From NCBI GenBank assembly GCA_031430855.1, contig JANPCG010000002.1, positions 1-61,502 of the forward strand: a stretch of 61,502 nucleotides of DNA. The letters are read 5' to 3'. The notes beneath the pieces are model-generated. The model was not told where the DNA came from. It searched no databases and saw only the letters and a program-made list of their open reading frames with translations. Numbering within the stretch: the stretch's first letter is position 1; each line of letters opens with the position of its first letter. Shown here one piece after another: positions 5,739 through 61,502 of the stretch. Origin of the DNA: Candidatus Kaiserbacteria bacterium. GTDB lineage: Bacteria; Patescibacteriota; Minisyncoccia; Phycocordibacterales; UBA918. A program made the translations under genes and the position numbers.

Positions 5739-5758
5739 CACTATCATATATGATAGTG
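5739..5758. repeat. Perfect 20-bp palindrome CACTATCATATATGATAGTG, copy 1; partial half-site GTGATAGTGAC follows at 5771-5781
   Basis: Read directly; the sequence equals its own reverse complement. Confidence 0.95.
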
Positions 5759-5836
5759 CTTTATTTAAGTGTGATAGTGACTTTAACGTTACGTATGACA
5801 CCTACGTCATTATCTTAGTGCAAACAATTTATAGTC

Positions 5837-5856
5837 CACTATCATATATGCTAGTG
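5837..5856. repeat. Palindrome copy 2, CACTATCATATATGCTAGTG (one mismatch)
   Basis: Read directly. Shares the extra flank AGTC with copy 4. Confidence 0.9.
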
Positions 5857-6001
5857 AACTTTCTAACTACGATAATGACTTAATCATCACTTATGAGTAC
5901 CAGGTTTTAGTACCACCACATGAATTTGTTTCAGTACACGATTTAGTATCAGCTCTTAAGATAAATAGTCATGTGAGATTGTTCGGTAACAAGCCGAAAT
6001 A

Positions 6002-6021
6002 CACTATCATATATGATAGTG
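6002..6021. repeat. Palindrome copy 3 (perfect); shortened relic CACTATTTGATAGT at 6032-6045
   Basis: Read directly. Confidence 0.95.
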
Positions 6022-6099
6022 TATATTTTTACACTATTTGATAGTTACTCTCTTTTAAACTTATTACTACAATTTATTTGAACTATTGAAAACGAAACT

Positions 6100-6133
6100 A
6101 AAAGTCCACTATCATATATGATAGTGGACTTTT
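6100..6133. repeat. Palindrome copy 4, extended to a perfect 34-bp palindrome AAAAGTCCACTATCATATATGATAGTGGACTTTT (core 6107-6126)
   Basis: Read directly. The A-run/stem/T-run layout could also act as a bidirectional terminator. Confidence 0.95.
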
Positions 6134-9412: not shown

Positions 9413-9586
9413 TTACTTCTTGCGTGCTGGAGCTTTTTTTGCTGCCTTCTTCACTACCTTCTTTGTTGCCTTCTTTGCAACTTTCTTCACTACTTTCTTT
9501 ACAACCTTCTTTGCTACCTTCTTTACTACCTTCTTCACAACTTTCTTAACTGCCTTCTTAGCAACCTTCTTTTTTGCTACTGCCAT
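9413..9586 (-). CDS. 58-aa Lys/Ala/Val-rich histone-H1-like basic protein (likely nucleoid/DNA-binding)
   Basis: MAVAKKKVAKKAVKKVVKKVVKKVAKKVVKKVVKKVAKKATKKVVKKAAKKAPARKK. I chose the internal ATG at 9586 rather than the track start at 9634. Strand was chosen because the terminator at 9345-9389 works only for the minus strand; the two plus-strand ORFs are mirror artefacts. Confidence 0.55.
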   Translation of the reverse strand: MAVAKKKVAKKAVKKVVKKVVKKVAKKVVKKVVKKVAKKATKKVVKKAAKKAPARKK

Positions 9587-45846: not shown

Positions 45847-47508
45847 TTAGACTCCCGGTATCAAATCAAGCAGATATATGATAATTTCCCGCAACATCAC
45901 TATGATTTTTGTTGATTCTTCCGGCGTTAATTCGTCAAGCTTATCTTCATTTTTGGTAATTTGGTCAACCAAGGTACGGACTGACTTAAGGAATGACGAT
46001 TCAGTTCCTTCGGCAGGAGTAGAGCTCGTCGTCGTAGTAGATAAGCGGTCTTTCATACGATAGCCGACACGGGTACCAGTACTACCACCAGACGATGACT
46101 CAAGCACCTCTTCTTCCGCGCACTCTGACGTTACTCCACCGTCAGTAATTACCCAAGTTTTATCAATAGTGAGGGTATCACGCGCAGCTTGGGCAGTCTC
46201 GCAATACAAAGAATTAGTACCAAAATTTACATCTGCTTGCACAGGAAGTAGAGACCAACTCGTTAAAAGTGTTGAATAATTTACGGAAGATAGTGCAGAA
46301 TCAATAAACATATCCTCCATCGTCGTAACGTTAGAAATATTCCACATCGAAAGGTCTTGATTAAATGTTGTAGCACCTTTAAAAAGATCTTCCATTCCTG
46401 TAACTCTCGACACATCCCAATTGTTTAGTGGTTGGTTAAATGAGGTGGCACCTGAAAACATACCCACATATCCCTCTTCAGAAATTCCCAAAATTTCAAC
46501 ATTTGAAACGTCCCAATTGTTTAATGGTTGATTAAAAGCAGTGGCATTACTAAACATTCCATTCATATTAGTAACATTAGAGACATCCCAATTGTTTAAT
46601 GGTTGATTAAATGAAGCAGCTCCACCAAATGTTCCATTCATCGAAGTAACATTAAATACGTCCCACGAATCTAATGGTTGATTGAAAGTAAGTGCGTAAT
46701 TAAACAGATAACTAAAATTAGTAACATTAGACAGATTCCAATTATCGAGAGGCTGATTAAACAGTTCTGCACCACTAAATATTCCGACGATGCTAGTTAC
46801 ACTTGAGACATCCCAATTGTTGAGTGACTGATTAAACGCCGTAGCACCGGTAAACATCCCACTGATATCAGTAACATTAGAAACATCCCAGGAATCTAGC
46901 GACTGGTTAAATGTACTGGTTTGCGAAAACATTCCACTCATATTAGTAACGTTAGAGACATCCCAATGATTAATTGGCTCATTTATCATTGTTGCCTCAT
47001 AAAACATATACCTCAAAATAGTAACCGTACTTAAGTCAGGAGCGTCAATAGCAGGAATTGTTAAATTTGGTGTCCGGGCAAATGCCTGTTCCATAGAACT
47101 CCACACTATGGCCCCCCACTGTTCAATAGTAAGAAGTTTTTCTCTATCAGTAGTTCCTGAAAAATTTCCTAAAAAAATCCTTGGGAAATTACCGGTAATA
47201 TCAACGCGATAAATACCAGCGCTTGGAAACGTAATAGTCACATCTCCAGTATTGCCAGTACTTGAACCATTGTTACCTGGAGTACTCACTTCCTCCCAAT
47301 AAACATCATAGTTGTACCCCCCTCCTATTGTTGGAATAGTAATTTGATTATCGTTTGACGGACCTTGATTATCTGTTTTCCATGTAGTTGAAAATGACCC
47401 GGGGGTAATTGACGAAGCCAAAGCACTACTGAAAAAAAGTGCTGAGAAACCAATTACTACAAATAGCACTGTCGAGCACTTTTTTAAATAATAGATTTGA
47501 TTATTCAT
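45847..47508 (-). CDS. BspA-type / DUF285 leucine-rich-repeat surface protein
   Basis: 553 aa. Signal peptide, then about 10 repeats of FNQPLNNWDVSNVTNMNGMFSNATAFNQ. Confidence 0.75.
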   Translation of the reverse strand: MNNQIYYLKKCSTVLFVVIGFSALFFSSALASSITPGSFSTTWKTDNQGPSNDNQITIPTIGGGYNYDVYWEEVSTPGNNGSSTGNTGDVTITFPSAGIYRVDITGNFPRIFLGNFSGTTDREKLLTIEQWGAIVWSSMEQAFARTPNLTIPAIDAPDLSTVTILRYMFYEATMINEPINHWDVSNVTNMSGMFSQTSTFNQSLDSWDVSNVTDISGMFTGATAFNQSLNNWDVSSVTSIVGIFSGAELFNQPLDNWNLSNVTNFSYLFNYALTFNQPLDSWDVFNVTSMNGTFGGAASFNQPLNNWDVSNVTNMNGMFSNATAFNQPLNNWDVSNVEILGISEEGYVGMFSGATSFNQPLNNWDVSRVTGMEDLFKGATTFNQDLSMWNISNVTTMEDMFIDSALSSVNYSTLLTSWSLLPVQADVNFGTNSLYCETAQAARDTLTIDKTWVITDGGVTSECAEEEVLESSSGGSTGTRVGYRMKDRLSTTTTSSTPAEGTESSFLKSVRTLVDQITKNEDKLDELTPEESTKIIVMLREIIIYLLDLIPGV

Positions 47509-49261
47509 AAATTGGTAGTAACGTTAACAAATACACAATAATATCACGCATCAGGAGTATGACTTTCTTTGACTCCTCTGGTGGTAAGGTAGCGAGCTGT
47601 TCTTCGTTAATCAATAGGTACGTAATAAATTTCTTGAGTGAGGTAACTATTGACTCACCCAGAATAATTGATTCGGTCGAACTGGTTACACTATTTGCTA
47701 ACTTGTGCTGGAGACGATCACCAACACGTGTTCCGGAATTACCACCACCAATAGGACCAACCTCAAGGAGAGCTGCAACTGAAAAATCAGCAGTGATATT
47801 CGTATCCGAACGGGGATTATCCATCCGTCCATCTGACCAGCTCACAAACCGGTATCCAGCGTTCGGAATCACTTCTACACTGATACCATCTTCCCCATCA
47901 ACCACATTTTGTGAAGCCAGACCTATAAGTGTCGCGTTCGACCCTACCGTATACACGAGATTAAAGCAGTCAGCTGAACCGTTATCTGAAATCAACCAAC
48001 TATAGTTATTAGTGAGCACGTCTCGTGCACTTTGAGCAGTCGTACAATATTCGATATCAGCATCAAGATACACATCAGACTGAAGCGACGGTCGGGCTGC
48101 CCAACTGGTCAGCATATTTGAATAATTACTTGTCGACAGGGACGTACCTGGAAACATCCCATCCATGTTCTCCACGTTCGTGACATCCCAACTGTCGAGC
48201 GACTGATTAAAATCAAACGCCCCCGCGAACATACTTTCCATAGTGGTCACATTTGATACATCCCAGCTACCTATAGATTGGTTAAAAACACGAGCCCCAG
48301 AAAACATCGACTCCATTGTCGTGACATTGGAAACACTCCAGGTATTTAATGGCTGATTGAAGGCTTCTGCAGCATTAAATATAAAAGCCATCGTGGTGGC
48401 ATTTGAAACGTTCCAAGTACCTAACGGTTGATTAAAAGCGGTGGCATTTTGAAAGAGGTACGAGAAGTCAGTAACATTAGATACGTCCCAGTTATCGAGC
48501 GGTTGATTGAATGCAGTCGCACCGCCAAAAATTGCACGAGCTTTGTTGCCATTACTCATCACCGTTACACTCGATACATCCCAGCTATTGAGCGGTTGAT
48601 TGAACCCTTGGGCATTGCCAAACGTACCACTCATATCAGTCACATTAGATACATCCCAGCTATTGAGCGGTTGATTAAATATCGCCGCATTATAAAACAT
48701 ACCGTTTATAGAAGTAATAGTACTGACATCCCAGTGGTCGATTGACTGATTAAACGAGGTTGCCCCGTAAAACATTTGTCTTAAGTCCGTTGCTTGTGAT
48801 AAGTCAGGCGCATCTACCGCTGGCACGGTGAGATTCGAGGCTAAGTAAAAAGCCGCTTCCAGAGTGGCCCATTCATTATCACCCCACTGCTCGACCGTCA
48901 AAATCTTTTGCTCATCACCAGCCAAACTAATATTAAAAGTCGGAAAATCTCCACTAATATCTACGCGATACATACCAGCTGACGGAAATGTAATTGTTTC
49001 AGGATTACAAGGACTGTCTAATGTAGTTGAACCATTATTACTCTGATTGCCGAGTTCTTCCCAGTACAGAGTACCGAGACATGACTCACCATCATTACCG
49101 GTACCGAGATGAAAACTAACTTGATCACTATTGGATGACCCTGAATTATCAGTTTTCCAGGTGGTCGAAAAAGACCCAGATGCTATTGGTGCAGCTAAAA
49201 CATCCACTGGTGACACGAAGGCAATAATAAAAAAGGCAATGAGGATTCCCCACGTTTTCAT
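47501..49261 (-). CDS. BspA-type / DUF285 leucine-rich-repeat surface protein, tandem paralogue
   Basis: 586 aa. Same repeat type (FNQPLNSWDVSNVTDMSGTFGNAQGFNQ). 8-nt overlap with the downstream paralogue. Confidence 0.75.
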   Translation of the reverse strand: MKTWGILIAFFIIAFVSPVDVLAAPIASGSFSTTWKTDNSGSSNSDQVSFHLGTGNDGESCLGTLYWEELGNQSNNGSTTLDSPCNPETITFPSAGMYRVDISGDFPTFNISLAGDEQKILTVEQWGDNEWATLEAAFYLASNLTVPAVDAPDLSQATDLRQMFYGATSFNQSIDHWDVSTITSINGMFYNAAIFNQPLNSWDVSNVTDMSGTFGNAQGFNQPLNSWDVSSVTVMSNGNKARAIFGGATAFNQPLDNWDVSNVTDFSYLFQNATAFNQPLGTWNVSNATTMAFIFNAAEAFNQPLNTWSVSNVTTMESMFSGARVFNQSIGSWDVSNVTTMESMFAGAFDFNQSLDSWDVTNVENMDGMFPGTSLSTSNYSNMLTSWAARPSLQSDVYLDADIEYCTTAQSARDVLTNNYSWLISDNGSADCFNLVYTVGSNATLIGLASQNVVDGEDGISVEVIPNAGYRFVSWSDGRMDNPRSDTNITADFSVAALLEVGPIGGGNSGTRVGDRLQHKLANSVTSSTESIILGESIVTSLKKFITYLLINEEQLATLPPEESKKVILLMRDIIVYLLTLLPIYE

Positions 49262-49610: not shown

Positions 49611-49848
49611 CCCTACTCACGGCCCAGAGACAAAAAGCAAAACAACAACCGCAAGATTGTATGATTTTGCTTTGTTCCGAATTTGCCCCTTTACCTTACA
49701 GGAACAGTACACCATTTGGATAGTTCTCATACTTCAAACTACCTCAAATGGTTTTTCTAAGTGACATTTAGTCACTTCTCAACCTAGGGCAAACCCCTCT
49801 AACGTTAACTCTAAAACCTGAATTTACTCCGTGTAATCTAGACGTTTT

Positions 49849-50728: not shown

Positions 50729-51676
50729 CTAGCGCCAAGTAAACCCGCGACCAAAGTGCCCCCATGAAGCAGTGTCTCTATAAATCGGAGCCTCAAGACC
50801 GAGGAAAGACTTAATACCTTTTGGAGTCAGATCATATCCGACGATTTGCTCTGGCACTCCATCAACAGAAGCAACCGCCATTAAGGCTTCAGGATGACCA
50901 ATGGCATACGCGAGTTTTACCAACACCACCTGCGCATCTGGTCTCGCTTCGAGATAATCAACCGCAATCCGCCTCGCCATGTACGCAGCCGAGCGATCAA
51001 CCTTACTGGGGTCTTTTCCCGAAAATGCACCGCCTCCCACAGCCACCTCTGGACCGTAATTATCAACGATAATCTTGCGTCCTGTCAGTCCCGCATCAGC
51101 GTCAAACCCACCCTGATTCCAATCACCAGCGGGATTAATATGATATTCGGCAGCATTAGGAATAACTGACTGAACGAGCGGCAATAATTGAGCCGTCGGA
51201 GCATTCTGAAAACTACACACCACCGACAAAACAGTACCCGTTTCGTCTACCGTCACCTGTGTTTTACCATCATAGGGATATACCTCATACACTTTTTGAC
51301 ACAAGGTACGCGCGAGCTCGTATTCTCGTGGCATATAGGTAGCCGTCTCGCGTGTGGCATAGCCAGTCATAATTCCCTGATCCCCTGCACCACCCGTATC
51401 AACTCCTTGAGCAATTTCTGGACTTTGCGCCACGACATGCGTTCGAATAGCCAGTCCTGGACCGGCAATCTCGGTAACTATCGCTTCAATATTGATACCG
51501 GCTGCGGTCGTCGTAACTTCACCAGTGACCCATACCTGTCCATGACTCCCGACTGATTCTATCGCCACCCGACTCTTTGGGTCTTGTGTTAAATACGCAT
51601 CGAGGATAGCGTCTGAGATTCGGTCACACATTTTGTCTGGATGTCCAGGTGATACACATTCAGCTGTTTTAATCAT
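50729..51676 (-). CDS. metK: S-adenosylmethionine synthetase, compact form (315 aa)
   Basis: GHPDKMCDRISDAILD, GAGDQGIMTGYA, GLTGRKIIVDNYG, GGGAFSGKDPSKVDRSAAY. It is shorter than the ~384-aa E. coli enzyme as I recall it. Confidence 0.85.
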   Translation of the reverse strand: MIKTAECVSPGHPDKMCDRISDAILDAYLTQDPKSRVAIESVGSHGQVWVTGEVTTTAAGINIEAIVTEIAGPGLAIRTHVVAQSPEIAQGVDTGGAGDQGIMTGYATRETATYMPREYELARTLCQKVYEVYPYDGKTQVTVDETGTVLSVVCSFQNAPTAQLLPLVQSVIPNAAEYHINPAGDWNQGGFDADAGLTGRKIIVDNYGPEVAVGGGAFSGKDPSKVDRSAAYMARRIAVDYLEARPDAQVVLVKLAYAIGHPEALMAVASVDGVPEQIVGYDLTPKGIKSFLGLEAPIYRDTASWGHFGRGFTWR

Positions 51677-51735: not shown

Positions 51736-51882
51736 TATCCAGGAGTCAGATATCTTTCACTGTCTTAAAAACAGTGTTGAAATTCGCACCTTGTTTTCAC
51801 AAAAAACAGGTTGCGGATGAAGTATTAAATGTCTGTAAAAACATTCTACGGGTCAATTCCCTTCTTCATGCTCTGGATACAA
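51731..51882 (-). promoter_or_regulatory. SAM-I-like riboswitch aptamer in the metK leader
   Basis: 10-bp P1 (TTGTATCCAG ... CTGGATACAA). In order: AGAG, AGGGA-AUUGACCC, GUAGA (k-turn-like), CAUCCGCAACC, a P3 hairpin, GGUGCGAAUUUC, P4 CACUGU/ACAGUG, GAAAGAU. Compared by eye with the SAM-I consensus. Confidence 0.65.
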
Positions 51883-51883
51883 A

Positions 51884-57457: not shown

Positions 57458-57521
57458 TATAAAAAAAGCTTTTGCGTGTTTTGTGGTAACAAATAATTTC
57501 TTTCAGAAATTTCCGCGACCC

Positions 57522-57549
57522 GAGAAACAGTGTCTAAACACTGTTTCTC
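57522..57549. repeat. Hairpin family member Ha: GAGAAACAGTGT-CTAA-ACACTGTTTCTC (12-bp stem)
   Basis: Read directly. It sits inside the loop of the stem CCGCG...CGCGG, which in the duplicate copy (58071-58095) has no insert. Confidence 0.9.
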
Positions 57550-57569
57550 CGCGGTTCACAAGCTCACAG

Positions 57570-57668
57570 CGCTCCGTCTCGCACAAAGGCCGTATCTGCC
57601 GCAGGGCAGATACTAATAACGTAAAACACCATTCTTACGAATGGTGTTTTACGTTATTTCCTTTGTGC
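57570..57668. repeat. 99-nt direct repeat, copy 1 (partner 58106-58204; offset 536 nt)
   Basis: Identical to copy 2 except for the 4-nt loop 57635-57638 (TTAC versus GTAA). Contains a 9-bp hairpin (57592-57613) and a 17-bp hairpin (57618-57655). Confidence 0.95.
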
Positions 57669-57724
57669 ACGCGATAGGTTGAAAACGTTTGGGAAACGTT
57701 TTCAAGACCTAGGACCTTTCGAGT
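57662..57724 (-). pseudogene. Degenerate tRNA-Ile 3' half (acceptor 3' strand, T stem, variable loop, anticodon-stem 3' strand) with the T loop replaced by a hairpin
   Basis: 57707-57724 equals 58221-58238 (18 of 18). 57662-57678 TTTGTGCACGCGATAGG compares with TTTGTGCGCGCTCTAGG in the real gene. Hairpin Hb occupies the T-loop position and hairpin Hc follows the anticodon-stem remnant. Confidence 0.55.
57679..57705. repeat. Hairpin family member Hb: TTGAAAACGTTT-GGG-AAACGTTTTCAA, then AGACCT
   Basis: Read directly; 12-bp stem. Confidence 0.9.
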
Positions 57725-57749
57725 GAAAAGTGGCCTAAGCCACTTTTCA
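57724..57749. repeat. Hairpin family member Hc: TGAAAAGTGGC-CTAA-GCCACTTTTCA, then AGACTC
   Basis: Read directly; 11-bp stem. Confidence 0.9.
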
Positions 57750-57845
57750 AGACTCATCCAGTATCTTTGTGAGTTAGCAAACAAAAGAGACGAATGAGTG
57801 GGCAGCTTCTGTAAGAAGAGCAGTGGGTGGGACCCGCTGCGTAAA

Positions 57846-57893
57846 ACCTTTTGTGATATTTCGTTGTTTGCGTAATTTGTGCGCGCTCTAGGG
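57846..57893. repeat. Inverted copy of the tRNA-Ile leader plus acceptor strand (57846-57887), fused to a copy of the tRNA 3' end (57876-57893)
   Basis: 57846-57887 aligns with the reverse complement of 58269-58306 (36 of 38 nt, two small indels). 57876-57893 TTTGTGCGCGCTCTAGGG equals 58198-58215 (18 of 18). Confidence 0.85.
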
Positions 57894-57919
57894 TGAGAAA
57901 GTGCCTAAGCACTTTCTCA
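57894..57919. repeat. Hairpin family member Hd: TGAGAAAGTGC-CTAA-GCACTTTCTCA, then AGACCT
   Basis: Read directly; 11-bp stem. Replaces the T-stem 5' strand and T loop of the tRNA fragment. Confidence 0.9.
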
Positions 57920-58105
57920 AGACCTTGCCTGCTAATTTTTGAGGTACGAAAATAATTAGTGACAAGGTATACCGATGCTGTAAGCAGAGAACCTGATGCT
58001 CTAGTCAATCTGGTAGTGGTCACAAATCACTAAGTATATTATTTCACTTCGTTCATAATCTACTAAGTGTTTGCGACCCCGACTCGCGACTCACTTCGTT
58101 CGTAA

Positions 58106-58204
58106 CGCTCCGTCTCGCACAAAGGCCGTATCTGCCGCAGGGCAGATACTAATAACGTAAAACACCATTCGTAAGAATGGTGTTTTACGTTATTTCCTTT
58201 GTGC
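58106..58204. repeat. 99-nt direct repeat, copy 2, abutting the 3' end of tRNA-Ile
   Basis: See copy 1. The 17-bp hairpin at 58154-58191 lies 11 nt downstream of the tRNA on the minus strand. Confidence 0.95.
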
Positions 58205-58275
58205 GCGCTCTAGGGGTCGAACCTAGGACCTTTCGAGTATCAGTCGAATGCTCTAGCCAACTGAGCTAAGCGCGC
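58202..58275 (-). tRNA. tRNA-Ile(GAU): tRNA-Ile, anticodon GAU, 74 nt, no encoded CCA
   Basis: Hand-folded cloverleaf: GCGCGCT TA GCTC AGTTGGCTA GAGC A TTCGA CTGATAC TCGAA AGGTC CTAGG TTCGACC CCTAG AGCGCGC A. All stems are Watson-Crick paired. Confidence 0.9.
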
Positions 58276-58325
58276 ACAAATTAAACAAACAAAATATCCA
58301 AAAGGTGTACAGCTCCTGTAAGGAG

Positions 58326-58345
58326 TCAGTCGAATGCTCTAGCCA
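58326..58345. repeat. 20-nt duplicate of the tRNA-Ile D-arm/anticodon-stem segment (equals 58240-58259), 51 nt upstream of the gene
   Basis: TCAGTCGAATGCTCTAGCCA is identical in both places. Confidence 0.9.
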
Positions 58346-58387
58346 CCCTATTGCCTCATAAATATCGGCAATTCGCTTCGCGACCGG

Positions 58388-58410
58388 GAAAATTGCTATC
58401 CGCAATTTTC
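58388..58410. repeat. Hairpin family member He (more divergent): GAAAATTGC-TATCC-GCAATTTTC
   Basis: Read directly; 9-bp stem. It lies next to a fourth, degenerate acceptor-like site GCGCGCACTATGG (58416-58428). Confidence 0.8.
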
Positions 58411-58487
58411 AGCCCGCGCGCACTATGGCATCTACACTTTCCCTTCGTGCTCGGTACTATAGCAAATTATGTTTAAAAATGTAAGGG

Positions 58488-58548: not shown

Positions 58549-58764
58549 TCAGAACCACGGACGATCGAGGAAGAGATTGACGGCTGCAATAGCGACTCCA
58601 ATCATTCCGACCCAGCAGATGGCGATGACGATTTTCCCAGCGCGGGAGTTGTCGAAGCGCGCGAGCCTTGCGAGCATGCCGTTCTTGAAGTCCTGTTTGA
58701 GGCCACCATCCTGTTTGGCCATAGTATCAAAGCCCGGATGGTGATCAAAATCACGATTGTCCAT
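58549..58764 (-). CDS. 71-aa protein with a C-terminal TM helix, G+C-rich, function unknown
   Basis: ...KIVIAICWVGMIGVAIAAVNLFL... 60% G+C at 58561-58660 by hand count. GAGG lies 10 nt upstream of the ATG. Has its own terminator. Confidence 0.45.
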   Translation of the reverse strand: MDNRDFDHHPGFDTMAKQDGGLKQDFKNGMLARLARFDNSRAGKIVIAICWVGMIGVAIAAVNLFLDRPWF

Positions 58765-58913
58765 TGTGCTCTTTCCTCAATTGCGACATCAACCTCTCGG
58801 GACTGAGTGTCGATTTTAGAATGACGGTTGTCATCCCACTGACCAAAATATTAGCATGAAATAGCACTTTTGTCAATTGTCTATACCCTGCGTTTTACTG
58901 TCTTTAATACAGT

Positions 58914-60086
58914 ATGATTACAGATATGAATTATATTATCGCTGCCCTACTACTTTTATTACCGAGCGTTACGTTTGCTCAATCAGTTCAAGGAATGATT
59001 ACCGGACTTGGCGACCTTGTAAATAACTACCTGATTCCGTTTGTTCTCGCTTTAGCCTTTTTCATTTTTGTCTACAATGCATTTCGGTTTTTTATTCTTG
59101 AAGGAAGCAACGAGGACGGTCGTGAGAATGCAAAAAACCTCGCTATCTACAGCGTCATGGCGTTTACCTTTTTTGTTCTCTTCTGGGGCCTTATCAACTT
59201 CTTTAGTGAAGAAATTGGACTAGATAACGAGCCCTGTAGTAATGATACGGTTTCAGATTATGTGATCAGTAATTTAGCCCCCTGTACTTCACCAAGGCCG
59301 CGTCCACGCCCTCCAGTAACTGACACTACCGCTCCAGTTCTTGGTGGCAGTGGCAATAATACTGACAGTCCAATTATCATTCCTGGTAACGGTGGCGCCC
59401 AACCTATAACACCAACGACCCCTGGACTTCCCGCGCCTGGCGGTACCGCCTCATACGCCGCAGTACAGGCAGCCCAGACCAGTATTCGCACTACTGCAGC
59501 TCCTTTTTTTACCACTCAATTTAATACCGATTTTGGCTATAATCGTGATATTGTCGCTCCACTATTTACTGACCTAGGGAGTACCTACTCAAACTCGGTT
59601 ACTGAATTGAATCGCTTACGAGCAGCGGTCCGACTGAACGAACTTGGGGTCATTTCTGACACCCAGGTTACCACCTACCTCAATGCCTATAATACCTACG
59701 CGACTGCAGCAGGAACCCTTTCATCTGGACCAATTACGCTCGCGAACATACAAAGTAGTCTCAGCATAAACCCCCCAGCAGCGCTACAAAGTCGAGAAAA
59801 CCAAACGCGACAACTCTTAATTGATACTCTGACTCTGTACAACATGAACAGTAGTACTGATGTCGATATCACTGCTGCAATAGCAAATGCCTACAGCGCT
59901 ACCAGTGATACAAATACCCGATATGAGATGATGCTTGAGATATTTTATCCACCCGCGGCGCCGGGAGGTGGTTCGGCCACTCAGCTCCCGATTAATACTC
60001 AAGCAAAAAATGCTTTTATTGAACGATTTGTATCAGATATTAATACCGAAAAAATTTATGCCGGAGACTTCGATTTAGTTGAATAA
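58914..60086 (+). CDS. Secreted/membrane protein with a T4SS-pilin-like N-terminus (signal peptide + two TM helices) and a ~270-aa Thr/Ala/Pro-rich C-terminal extension
   Basis: IIAALLLLLPSVTFAQ; TM1 LIPFVLALAFFIFVYNAFRFFIL; charged loop EGSNEDGRENAKN; TM2 LAIYSVMAFTFFVLFWGLINFF; then PRPRPRPP and T/A-rich sequence. Confidence 0.45.
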   Translation: MITDMNYIIAALLLLLPSVTFAQSVQGMITGLGDLVNNYLIPFVLALAFFIFVYNAFRFFILEGSNEDGRENAKNLAIYSVMAFTFFVLFWGLINFFSEEIGLDNEPCSNDTVSDYVISNLAPCTSPRPRPRPPVTDTTAPVLGGSGNNTDSPIIIPGNGGAQPITPTTPGLPAPGGTASYAAVQAAQTSIRTTAAPFFTTQFNTDFGYNRDIVAPLFTDLGSTYSNSVTELNRLRAAVRLNELGVISDTQVTTYLNAYNTYATAAGTLSSGPITLANIQSSLSINPPAALQSRENQTRQLLIDTLTLYNMNSSTDVDITAAIANAYSATSDTNTRYEMMLEIFYPPAAPGGGSATQLPINTQAKNAFIERFVSDINTEKIYAGDFDLVE

Positions 60087-60433: not shown

Positions 60434-61502
60434 ATTGGAATTAATCCACGACCAGCTTCCGCTAGCCGTGCCTTGTTACGACTTAGTCCTTGTTATCGAG
60501 CTTACCGTAAGACCACGCGAGGTGGTATTTCGGGCACTCCCGACTCCCCTGACTTGACGGGCGGTGAGTACAAGGCTCGGGAACGTATTCACCGTGACGT
60601 TGCTGATTCACGATTACTAGCGATTCCGACTTCATGAGGTCGAGTTGCAGACCTCAATCCGAACTGAGGATGGTTTTATAAGGATTTGCTCCACGTTACC
60701 GTATTGCGTCCCGTTGTACCACCCATTGTATCACGTGTGCAGCCCAAGGCATCAAGGGACATGCTGACCTGGCGTCATCCTCACCTTCCTCTCCCGTGAG
60801 GGAGCAGTCTCGCCTGACACTTATAACAGGCAACGAGGGTTGCGTTCGTTTCCCCACTTAAGGGAACAGCTCAAGCCACGAACTGACGACGGCCATGCAT
60901 CACCTGTCCTACACCCTCGAAGGCTTCCCCGGTTTCCCGGGGTGTGCAGTAGGATTTCTAACCTTGGTAAGGTTCTTCGCTTAGCTACGAATTAAGCCAC
61001 ATGATCCACCGCTTGTGCGAGCCCCCGTCTATTCCTTTGAGTTTTAATCTTGCGATCGTACTACCCAGGCGGTCTGTTTAACGCGTTAGCTTCGTCTCTA
61101 AGAGGGTCGATACTCCTAAAAACCAACAGACAGCGTTTAGGGCGTGGACTACGCGGGTATCTAATCCGCTTCGCTACCCACGCTTTCGTGCCTCAGCGTC
61201 AAGAGAGTCCCAGCAAGCTGCCTTCGCATTTGGTATTCCCCACGATATCAACGGATTTCACCCCTACACCGTGAGTTCTGCTTGCCTCTAACTTCTTCTA
61301 GTTATACCGTTTCAAATGCGATTTTTGGGTTGAGCCCAAAGATTTAACACCTGACTAATATAACCGCCTACGCACCCTTTACGCCCAGTAAATCCGGATA
61401 ATGCTTGGGGCCTCTGTATTACCGCTCCTGCTGGCACAGAGTTGGGAGCCCCTTATTCATGGAGTAACATCAATAAACTTTCTCCTCCATAAAAGGTGTT
61501 TA
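60434..61502 (-). rRNA. rrs: 16S rRNA gene, 3' ~1.07 kb (from about E. coli position 440 to the 3' end); 5' part lies beyond the right window edge
   Basis: Reverse complement contains GTGCCAGCAGGAGCGGTAATAC (515 region, near 61430), GAATACGTTCCCGAGCCTTGTACTCACCGCCCGTCA, AAGTCGTAACAAGG and helix 45 with a GGAA loop. The length from the 515 region to the end is about 1000 nt, so there is no large insertion. The 3' end is placed by alignment to the E. coli terminus. Confidence 0.95.

Follow-up and report, generated by a model that had tools for sequence, protein, structure and literature searches.

Why should a bacterium with one intact tRNA-Ile(GAU) gene surround it with partial copies of that gene? 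The question is raised by a 61,502-nt stretch of DNA from Candidatus Kaiserbacteria (contig JANPCG010000002.1; hereafter the window), whose only tRNA according to ARAGORN is a tRNA-Ile(GAU) at 58202-58275 on the minus strand, which scores 70.4 bits in Rfam and does not encode its CCA. An inspection of the letters alone (the sequence-only reading) had described the region as a scrambled locus with a 536-bp tandem duplication, one intact tRNA and several tRNA-derived fragments. Seventeen sequences, namely the window and 16 loci related to it, were read base by base in the tRNA sense; labels such as L003 or L137 denote the related loci or contigs compared with the window. The earlier observation is confirmed and its interpretation is partly supported, as the locus has a composite, conserved and nested architecture that includes two structured modules, X and Y, whose stems covary. 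With a confidence that falls a little short of even, we take the region to be a lineage-wide composite tRNA-Ile locus, ordered throughout, in which a working gene lies inside older copies of itself.

The repeats are as described. A 99-nt block found at both 57570-57668 and 58106-58204 differs between its copies at positions 57635 and 57638 only, and these two differences turn the 4-nt loop TTAC into GTAA, its exact reverse complement; extended to 109 nt (57570-57678 and 58106-58214), the copies are 95% identical. Three shorter matches are perfect: the 18-mer at 57707-57724 with 58221-58238, the 18-mer at 57876-57893 with 58198-58215 (a copy of the tRNA 3' end) and the 20-mer at 58326-58345 with 58240-58259 (a copy of the D-arm and anticodon stem). 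The looser remnants stand as well. An acceptor/T-stem remnant at 57662-57679 matches the tRNA 3' end and its flank at 78%, a D-arm-like piece agrees at 12 of 13 bases (57996-58008), an acceptor-like GCGCGCG lies on the tRNA strand at 58415-58421, hairpin and leader remnants parallel the flanks of the genuine gene, and the GCGCGC sites do alternate at 214 and 322 nt. This repetition is beyond chance (66 repeated 18-mers in the region, while even a single repeated 12-mer was seen in only 25 of 500 shuffles). Nine of the approximately 19 perfect hairpins of the 61.5-kb window with stems of at least 9 bp fall within 57522-58410, and the RNA fold of this ~0.9-kb region has z = -14.7 against shuffles. 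Identification of the whole region as a known structured RNA would have undone the observation; no Rfam 15 family except tRNA matched, and scans at the gathering threshold and at E ≤ 10 otherwise returned only meaningless miRNA-type matches on a 20-bp hairpin, far below threshold. Two parts of the sequence-only reading have to be given up. The locus is not scrambled, since the pieces keep the order and direct orientation of the tRNA, with conserved modules (X, Y and Y-derived hairpins) cutting the outer copies within or next to the D-, anticodon and T-loops. Nor is it a clean 536-bp tandem duplication, as near-identity is limited to its ends of ~109 nt, each comprising the tRNA 3' end and the block that follows it, which we call Z.

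Read along the minus strand, on which all of the following features lie, the array opens with a sigma-70-type promoter (58485-58456; CTTACA, an 18-nt spacer, then TG-TATAGT). Motif X (58330-58427; a covariance-model match of 101.6 bits, placed by alignment and covariation) begins with the acceptor-like 5' strand GCGCGCG (58421 to 58415), continues through three covarying hairpins and closes with AGGG-TGGCTAGAGC, which is tRNA D-loop/D-stem sequence. Past 58346 X gives way to the first outer tRNA-like piece, the exact copy at 58326-58345, which carries linear positions 17-36 of the tRNA, that is, the D-arm and the 5' side of the anticodon stem/loop. The leader of the real tRNA (58276-58324) is the 5' half of a repeat, Y_a, matched by the Y hidden Markov model (HMM) from 58324 to 58289 (model positions 1-36); it consists of the hairpin CTCC-TTACA-GGAG and the 5' strand of a central stem, and is complementary to 57864-57887. 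After the functional tRNA comes Z1 (58106-58201), in which CAAAGG/CCTTTG encloses two hairpins, a perfect one of 20 bp and another of 9 bp; on the plus strand it reads like a terminator. Next is a spacer (58012-58105) that is conserved in L003, L005, L008 and L017. A third tRNA-like copy (57879-58011) combines the D-arm-like piece with Y_c (57894-57985), which takes the place of the T-loop, and an exact copy of tRNA positions 61-75 (57879-57893); L010 has a counterpart of this module. The trailer (57847-57878) supplies the 3' strand of the Y_a central stem and pairs with the leader at 58276-58305 (24 nt, 92% complementary, paired in the minimum-free-energy fold). It is followed by the Y_a 3' terminal hairpin (57821-57839), assigned by reading the sequence against L059. 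The real tRNA stands at the apex of the Y_a central stem, so that Y_a provides its leader-trailer helix.

The remainder of the array completes the outer copy. Y_b (57725-57820), a complete Y without a tRNA, sits in the anticodon loop of this copy and is followed by a second outer piece (57707-57724), an exact copy of tRNA positions 38-55. A 12-bp hairpin resembling the third hairpin of Y replaces the outer T-loop (57679-57705), and a diverged T-stem and acceptor 3' strand (57662-57678) lead into Z2 (57570-57661), the second Z with its flipped loop, and a diverged paralogue of the post-Z1 spacer (57462-57569) with a 12-bp hairpin at 57522-57549. The outer CGCGTGC (57673 to 57667) can pair 7/7 with the X 5' strand GCGCGCG; in strain L137 the outer acceptor strand is CGCGCGC and the pairing is perfect. 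The outer tRNA-Ile copy is 5'-defective and interrupted three times, by X in the D-loop, by two Y modules in the anticodon loop and by a Y-type hairpin in place of the T-loop. With an extra segment of Z1, spacer and third tRNA-like copy lying between tRNA and trailer in this genome, the combination of tRNA 3' end and Z occurs twice, 536 nt apart, and it is these two termini, rather than two copies of one unit, that produce the 536-nt periodicity. Block Z is also found in L003 and L005, where both hairpin arms have changed together. Hairpin-loop flip-flop inversions are known from chloroplast DNA, and the loop of the 20-bp Z hairpin behaves alike, being inverted between copies and between strains; this is a side feature that does not explain the locus.

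Nested and partial copies are widespread among the relatives. Counting exact matches of at least 13 nt to the resident tRNA within 800 nt at 69 distinct loci, we found extra pieces at 37. All 65 pieces are in direct orientation, none is inverted, and 58 lie downstream of the gene; of their 104 internal boundaries, the D-, anticodon and T-loops hold 80, compared to an expectation of 35%. The pieces match the tRNA of their own genome even where tRNAs differ between genomes (e.g. L060 and L041), which argues for gene conversion or a recent origin. Three arrangements recur. The tRNA may simply be followed by an X-bearing copy (L010, L013, L037, L063 and L073); the tRNA with its leader-trailer helix may lie within the D-arm of an X-bearing copy (L003); or the tRNA may sit in a Y that itself sits in the anticodon loop of an X-bearing copy (the window, L059, L041 and L051). 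In the literature searched we found no account of the locus or of motif X, and nesting of this kind is undescribed there for bacterial tRNA genes. A second case lies at L003:7176-7457 (also in L005 and L007), where the T-loop of an outer tRNA-Leu-like copy houses the neighbouring tRNA-Leu(CAG) gene. In L003, pieces 7-22, 30-62 and 64-75 surround the real gene, with Y-type hairpins at the junctions and the Y frame antisense, and nesting is thus not specific to tRNA-Ile.

Motif X is a new three-hairpin element bound to the tRNA-Ile locus. Its consensus runs GYGCGAGCU, hairpin 1, CCCGN, hairpins 2 and 3, then AGGG-UUGGCUA, a layout in which the 5' acceptor strand and D-stem of a tRNA are separated from the D-loop by ~70 nt of inserted structure. 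When 29 copies were aligned with MAFFT, both partners had changed in 16 of the 17 stem pairs. Pairing holds in 95.9% of cells, versus 34-50% once the partner column is slid, and none of 500 shuffles matches the observed score. RNAalifold independently gives the same hairpins. While the stems turn over with compensation, the loops are conserved: hairpin 2 mostly has a C-GNA-G loop and hairpin 3 the loop GATRTTTAYGA, with internal R-Y covariation. Such loops suggest sequence-specific recognition of the folded element. The covariance model recovers 47 plus 45 copies among the loci searched, and an HMM census counts 93 copies from 75 sources. All 87 X copies on contigs that also bear a tRNA-Ile share the strand of that gene and are at most 446 nt away, with 47 lying upstream and 40 downstream; X is missing at 27 of 88 loci. 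A degenerate X pattern selected 54 metagenome stretches, of which the HMM accepts 38 as true X and assigns 16 to chance, and the true copies adjoin tRNA-Ile wherever the contig has a tRNA called. X has no Rfam match, its pattern was not found among 2.9 M viral contigs, and in the phage and plasmid collections searched the tRNA itself was the sole match.

Module Y is not confined in this way. It is a dispersed three-hairpin repeat of ~95 nt with the consensus CTCC-TTACA-GGAG, CTGTMCAC, a long central stem, CTTGC, AAA-GTTT-CCC-AAAC-TTT and TCAC, and 26 of its 28 predicted pairs covary. We found 56 copies in the ~1.5 Mb searched, in both orientations and often in alternating clusters. In the neighbourhood of tRNA-Ile, 27 copies share the strand of the tRNA and 15 have the opposite sense, and L007 and L120 show alternating triplets. 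Antisense copies of Y occupy the variable loop. Half-Y matches flank the real tRNA on both sides in the window and in L059, and lone 5' halves lie beside the tRNA in L041 and L046. Stand-alone intergenic copies are present in L006, L062, L093, L125 and the window itself, at 49690-49785 on the plus strand, 8 kb from the tRNA locus. The window's stand-alone copy lies upstream of a TP_methylase gene, and its first ~30 nt resemble the tRNA-Ile leader (58324-58289). As a short non-coding hairpin element that is intergenic, bidirectional and clustered, Y answers to the description of repetitive extragenic palindromic (REP) sequences, bacterial interspersed mosaic elements (BIMEs), REP doublets forming hairpins (REPINs) or elements like miniature inverted-repeat transposable elements (MITEs). 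We know of no transposase for Y, and at 31 junctions neither a target duplication, as expected of cut-and-paste MITEs, nor a conserved target motif was seen beside it. Like the REP/BIME/REPIN and MITE-like repeats, the Rickettsia palindromic elements and the organelle palindromic repeats (e.g. PMC2670323), it is dispersed and hairpin-rich, and it can likewise sit in RNA-gene sequence. It differs in having three hairpins and a conserved TTACA loop, and in a central stem that is also the tRNA leader-trailer helix and can carry a whole tRNA. A further insert of ~57 nt was recognized by eye in both orientations (AATTAAGGAG...CGACTATAA...GGAAAT...CTTGTGG; L010, L035, L056, L059, L063, L046 and L055), and tRNA-like copies carry it either within the T-loop or in the stretch from D-arm to anticodon loop.

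The architecture belongs to a lineage rather than to one assembly. A comparison with the orthologous locus, which the sequence-only reading had proposed, shows it at the syntenic tRNA-Ile(GAU) locus of dozens of related genomes and metagenome contigs, strongly covarying motif included. Querying with the MurD-like neighbour yielded 80 loci in metagenome-assembled genomes (MAGs) of Patescibacteria (labelled Paceibacteria, Kaiserbacteria, Parcubacteria or Nomurabacteria), and in approximately 60 of these the order is 16S, a pilin-like open reading frame (ORF), the tRNA-Ile unit, a VTT-domain (DedA-like) ORF and the MurD-like gene. MurD identity across the clade that carries the locus is 55-85%, and every locus scanned has exactly one intact tRNA-Ile. 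Relative to its fixed flanks the unit is oriented as in the window in ~35 relatives and oppositely in ~19, very close relatives included, so that the promoter-X-tRNA unit is inverted, patchily, in ~19 of ~55. Between L003 and L007, promoter, X, tRNA and Y are inverted together, in one unit of ~390 nt. A single inversion between flanking inverted repeats was considered for this pair and rejected, as the breakpoints fit no single pair of such repeats.

A single conserved promoter stands ahead of the region. The promoter pattern TT[AT]CA-N16-20-TATA[GA]T (CCCTTACA-N-TGCTATAGT) is found upstream in the tRNA sense at 65 of 94 related loci and never in antisense. Its distance to the tRNA is bimodal, either 13-51 nt or, with X in between, 138-197 nt. 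The leader-trailer helix adds to the acceptor stem a median of 8.5 bp and at most 18 bp, compared to 0.7 bp in shuffles, and its non-Watson-Crick cells comprise 30 G.U and 9 A.C. This G.U excess suggests an RNA processing stem, while transcription-linked C>T bias could mimic it. The entire array may be one transcript, from which RNase P and 3' processing would free tRNA-Ile; RNase III may also cleave the ~20-bp helix formed by acceptor, leader and trailer.

How might such a locus arise? In the account we favour, older tRNA copies would have received hairpin-ended modules in their single-stranded loops, no target being duplicated, and each event would have left one intact inner gene. Gene conversion may then hold the pieces identical to the resident tRNA, and recombination among the repeats would yield the duplications, deletions and inversions that distinguish relatives and strains. 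We propose, tentatively and well short of conviction, that Patescibacteria have a structure-directed, target-sparing insertion of hairpin-ended cassettes into loops of the same tRNA gene, that some cassettes carry a whole tRNA, and that X is a new tRNA-linked class recognized as folded RNA or single-stranded DNA. Several points weigh against this account. No enzyme for structure-directed insertion was identified, and the 31 Y junctions share no target motif. Tandem duplications followed by deletions could yield part of the pattern, and the trailer and the start of X do recur after outer copies, as tandem duplication predicts. The level at which the hairpins are constrained, DNA or RNA, is ambiguous. 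The sequence d(GCGAAGC) is a famously stable DNA mini-hairpin, and C-GNA-G triloops of this type, perfect stems, rare G.U pairs and the TTAC/GTAA loop flip hint at DNA. Hints of RNA come from the G.U to A.C ratio, 30:9 in the leader-trailer helix and 21:8 in X, although the latter derives from alignments fitted to the model and falls to about 6:5 on the unfitted alignment; in Y it is 26:17, and as a guide to the level only the leader-trailer ratio is suggestive.

Alternatively, the locus could be a functional RNA operon that produces tRNA-Ile together with a stable, tRNA-scaffolded non-coding RNA (ncRNA), with X as the effector domain in the D-loop of a tRNA-Ile mimic, a reading that we regard as possible, if doubtful. 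The tRNA-like part would attract RNase P together with 3' trimming and CCA addition, in the manner of transfer-messenger RNA (tmRNA), YrlA and mascRNA, and since the outer RNA has to remain able to fold, insertions would be limited to loops. In each of these ncRNAs a mimic is fused to a structured non-tRNA domain, and here too the two are presumably co-transcribed and processed. This reading is supported by the conserved loops and junctions of X beside compensated stems, by its constant position on the tRNA strand behind a shared predicted promoter and by an X 5' strand that follows lineage-specific acceptor changes. In the fold of the X-bearing copy of L037 (z = -4.1) an acceptor-like helix of 8 bp closes the molecule, in the window and L137 the X 5' strand can pair 7/7 with the outer 3' strand through a double change at G7-C66, and a kilobase of non-coding DNA is kept in very small genomes. 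However, an outer copy is usually either truncated or else broken within its anticodon or T-loop, and G7.A66 and 1-72 mismatches occur; X occurs on either side of the tRNA, is absent from many loci and is not always joined to a complete mimic; GNRA and UNCG loops are absent, as is a G.U excess in the unfitted alignment. No tmRNA or YrlA model matches in Rfam, no smpB or rsr gene is near, and a Pfam scan of the ORFs in 44-61.5 kb found no gene for a partner protein. Neutral duplication and decay, in which slippage or unequal crossing-over, deletions and quasi-palindrome correction act without any insertion mechanism or function, strikes us as unlikely. It accommodates two identical 151-nt units in L073, the repetition of the trailer and X start after every tRNA-like 3' end, and perfect stems with flipped loops, which template switching predicts. 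It leaves unexplained the clustering of boundaries in all four loops, the conserved loops beside fast-evolving stems, the 65:0 ratio of direct to inverted tRNA pieces, the persistence over a clade with 55-85% MurD identity and the stand-alone copies of Y.

The sequence-only reading had held that this is not a simple att-site duplication, with no integrase gene nearby, and the domain scan of the same ORFs bears it out. Serial site-specific integration and excision at tRNA-Ile, with the fragments as attL/attR scars of later-deleted elements, is in our estimate very improbable. Several 3' parts do run from the anticodon or T-loop to the 3' end, downstream and in direct orientation, much as partial tRNA genes at att sites form direct 3'-part repeats downstream of an intact gene (Reiter 1989; Williams 2002; PMC9897764). 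Breakpoints in the anticodon or T-loop are a second likeness, tyrosine integrases preferring these sublocations according to Williams 2002, at least as that work is cited in PMC9897764. In contrast, that known source of tRNA fragments involves kilobase-scale elements between the whole and the partial gene (PMC9897764), while here the gaps are 50-600 nt and ORF-free, insertions lack a duplicated overlap or core, 5'-side pieces are present (58326-58345 and 58415-58421), and hairpin modules interrupt the pieces internally. Integrase and transposase domains are absent from the scanned ORFs and from the 10 extra genes beside tRNA-Ile in relatives, which encode LtrA-family and other membrane or enzyme proteins. 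Searches of viral contigs, phages and plasmids likewise gave no copy of X or Y.

Archaeal tRNA genes may be disrupted by multiple introns or occur in split and permuted forms. The interrupted copy could accordingly be imagined as a multi-intron gene spliced in the archaeal manner into a second functional tRNA-Ile, to which we give hardly any credence. The inserts do share their sites, namely the D-, anticodon, variable and T-loops, with those of multi-intron tRNA genes in Thermoproteales, with related inserts at different positions. The host, however, is bacterial, and in L003 the outer anticodon arm and Y fold into a stem that closes a three-hairpin multiloop without a bulge-helix-bulge motif. 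Removal of X leaves a 5' part without positions 13-14 and with a single nucleotide at 8-9; this part reads GCGAGCT rather than GCTTAGCTC, with acceptor mismatches at pairs 1-72 and 7-66. The interrupted copies are defective and coexist with an intact gene nested inside them, and an intact tRNA-Ile is always there. Just as remote is an assembly artefact, either a chimera or an expanded repeat. L135, an NCBI contig of the same population (99.8% identical), ends within Z2 with the loop in the other orientation, L136, a Logan contig, continues from Z straight into the 3' end of the real tRNA, and many MAG contigs terminate at the locus. Yet loop and flanks are not the same in both copies of Z, the module order is the same across many independent assemblies, and L137, an ENA scaffold assembled independently from a 98.7%-identical strain, agrees with the window over 57462-57856 before diverging into a different trailer. 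Together, L135, L136 and L137 indicate a locus that is real, variable between strains and a frequent contig break point.

On the composite, nested reading, target, cargo and scars are all versions of the same tRNA, with breakpoints that respect the cloverleaf. Transfer RNA genes are classic landing sites of mobile DNA. If insertion is structure-directed, the locus represents a novel route by which copies of a bacterial gene can overwrite it; X, if it functions as an RNA, adds a new conserved motif to a major uncultivated lineage with very small genomes. The locus also explains the frequent breaks of Paceibacteria MAG contigs between 16S and murD, and tRNA-like fragments here should not be annotated by default as att sites or pseudogenes.

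Several further observations concern the surroundings. The window ends in a partial 16S rRNA gene (60434-61502, minus strand) that is unlinked, as no 23S gene was found within 60 kb downstream. In the interval between the 16S side and the tRNA-Ile locus (58549-60086), the two are separated by an opposite-strand ORF resembling a type IV secretion system pilin (58914-60086, PF18895) and a 71-aa ORF. Many MAG contigs stop ~1.1 kb or ~3.5 kb upstream of the MurD-like gene, that is, in the tRNA-Ile locus or in 16S. The 16S matches of some relatives (L010, L025, L030, L050 and L078) are split by insertions of <0.1 kb to ~1.1 kb; insertions of this kind are known in rRNA genes of the candidate phyla radiation. 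Farther away, an S-adenosylmethionine (SAM) riboswitch at 51747-51883 (minus strand), with a score equal to the Rfam gathering score, is situated upstream of an S-adenosylmethionine synthetase gene (50729-51676), and two neighbouring DUF285 proteins at 45847-49261 (minus strand) are built of 75-nt (25-aa) repeats, 17 copies. One intergenic region (5739-6126) contains four copies of the 20-bp palindrome CACTATCATATATGATAGTG, operator-like in appearance, and a run with a 12-nt period (TTCTTYNCNNCC-like) at 9423-9584, just past an 838-aa ORF, may encode a Lys-rich repeat on the minus strand.

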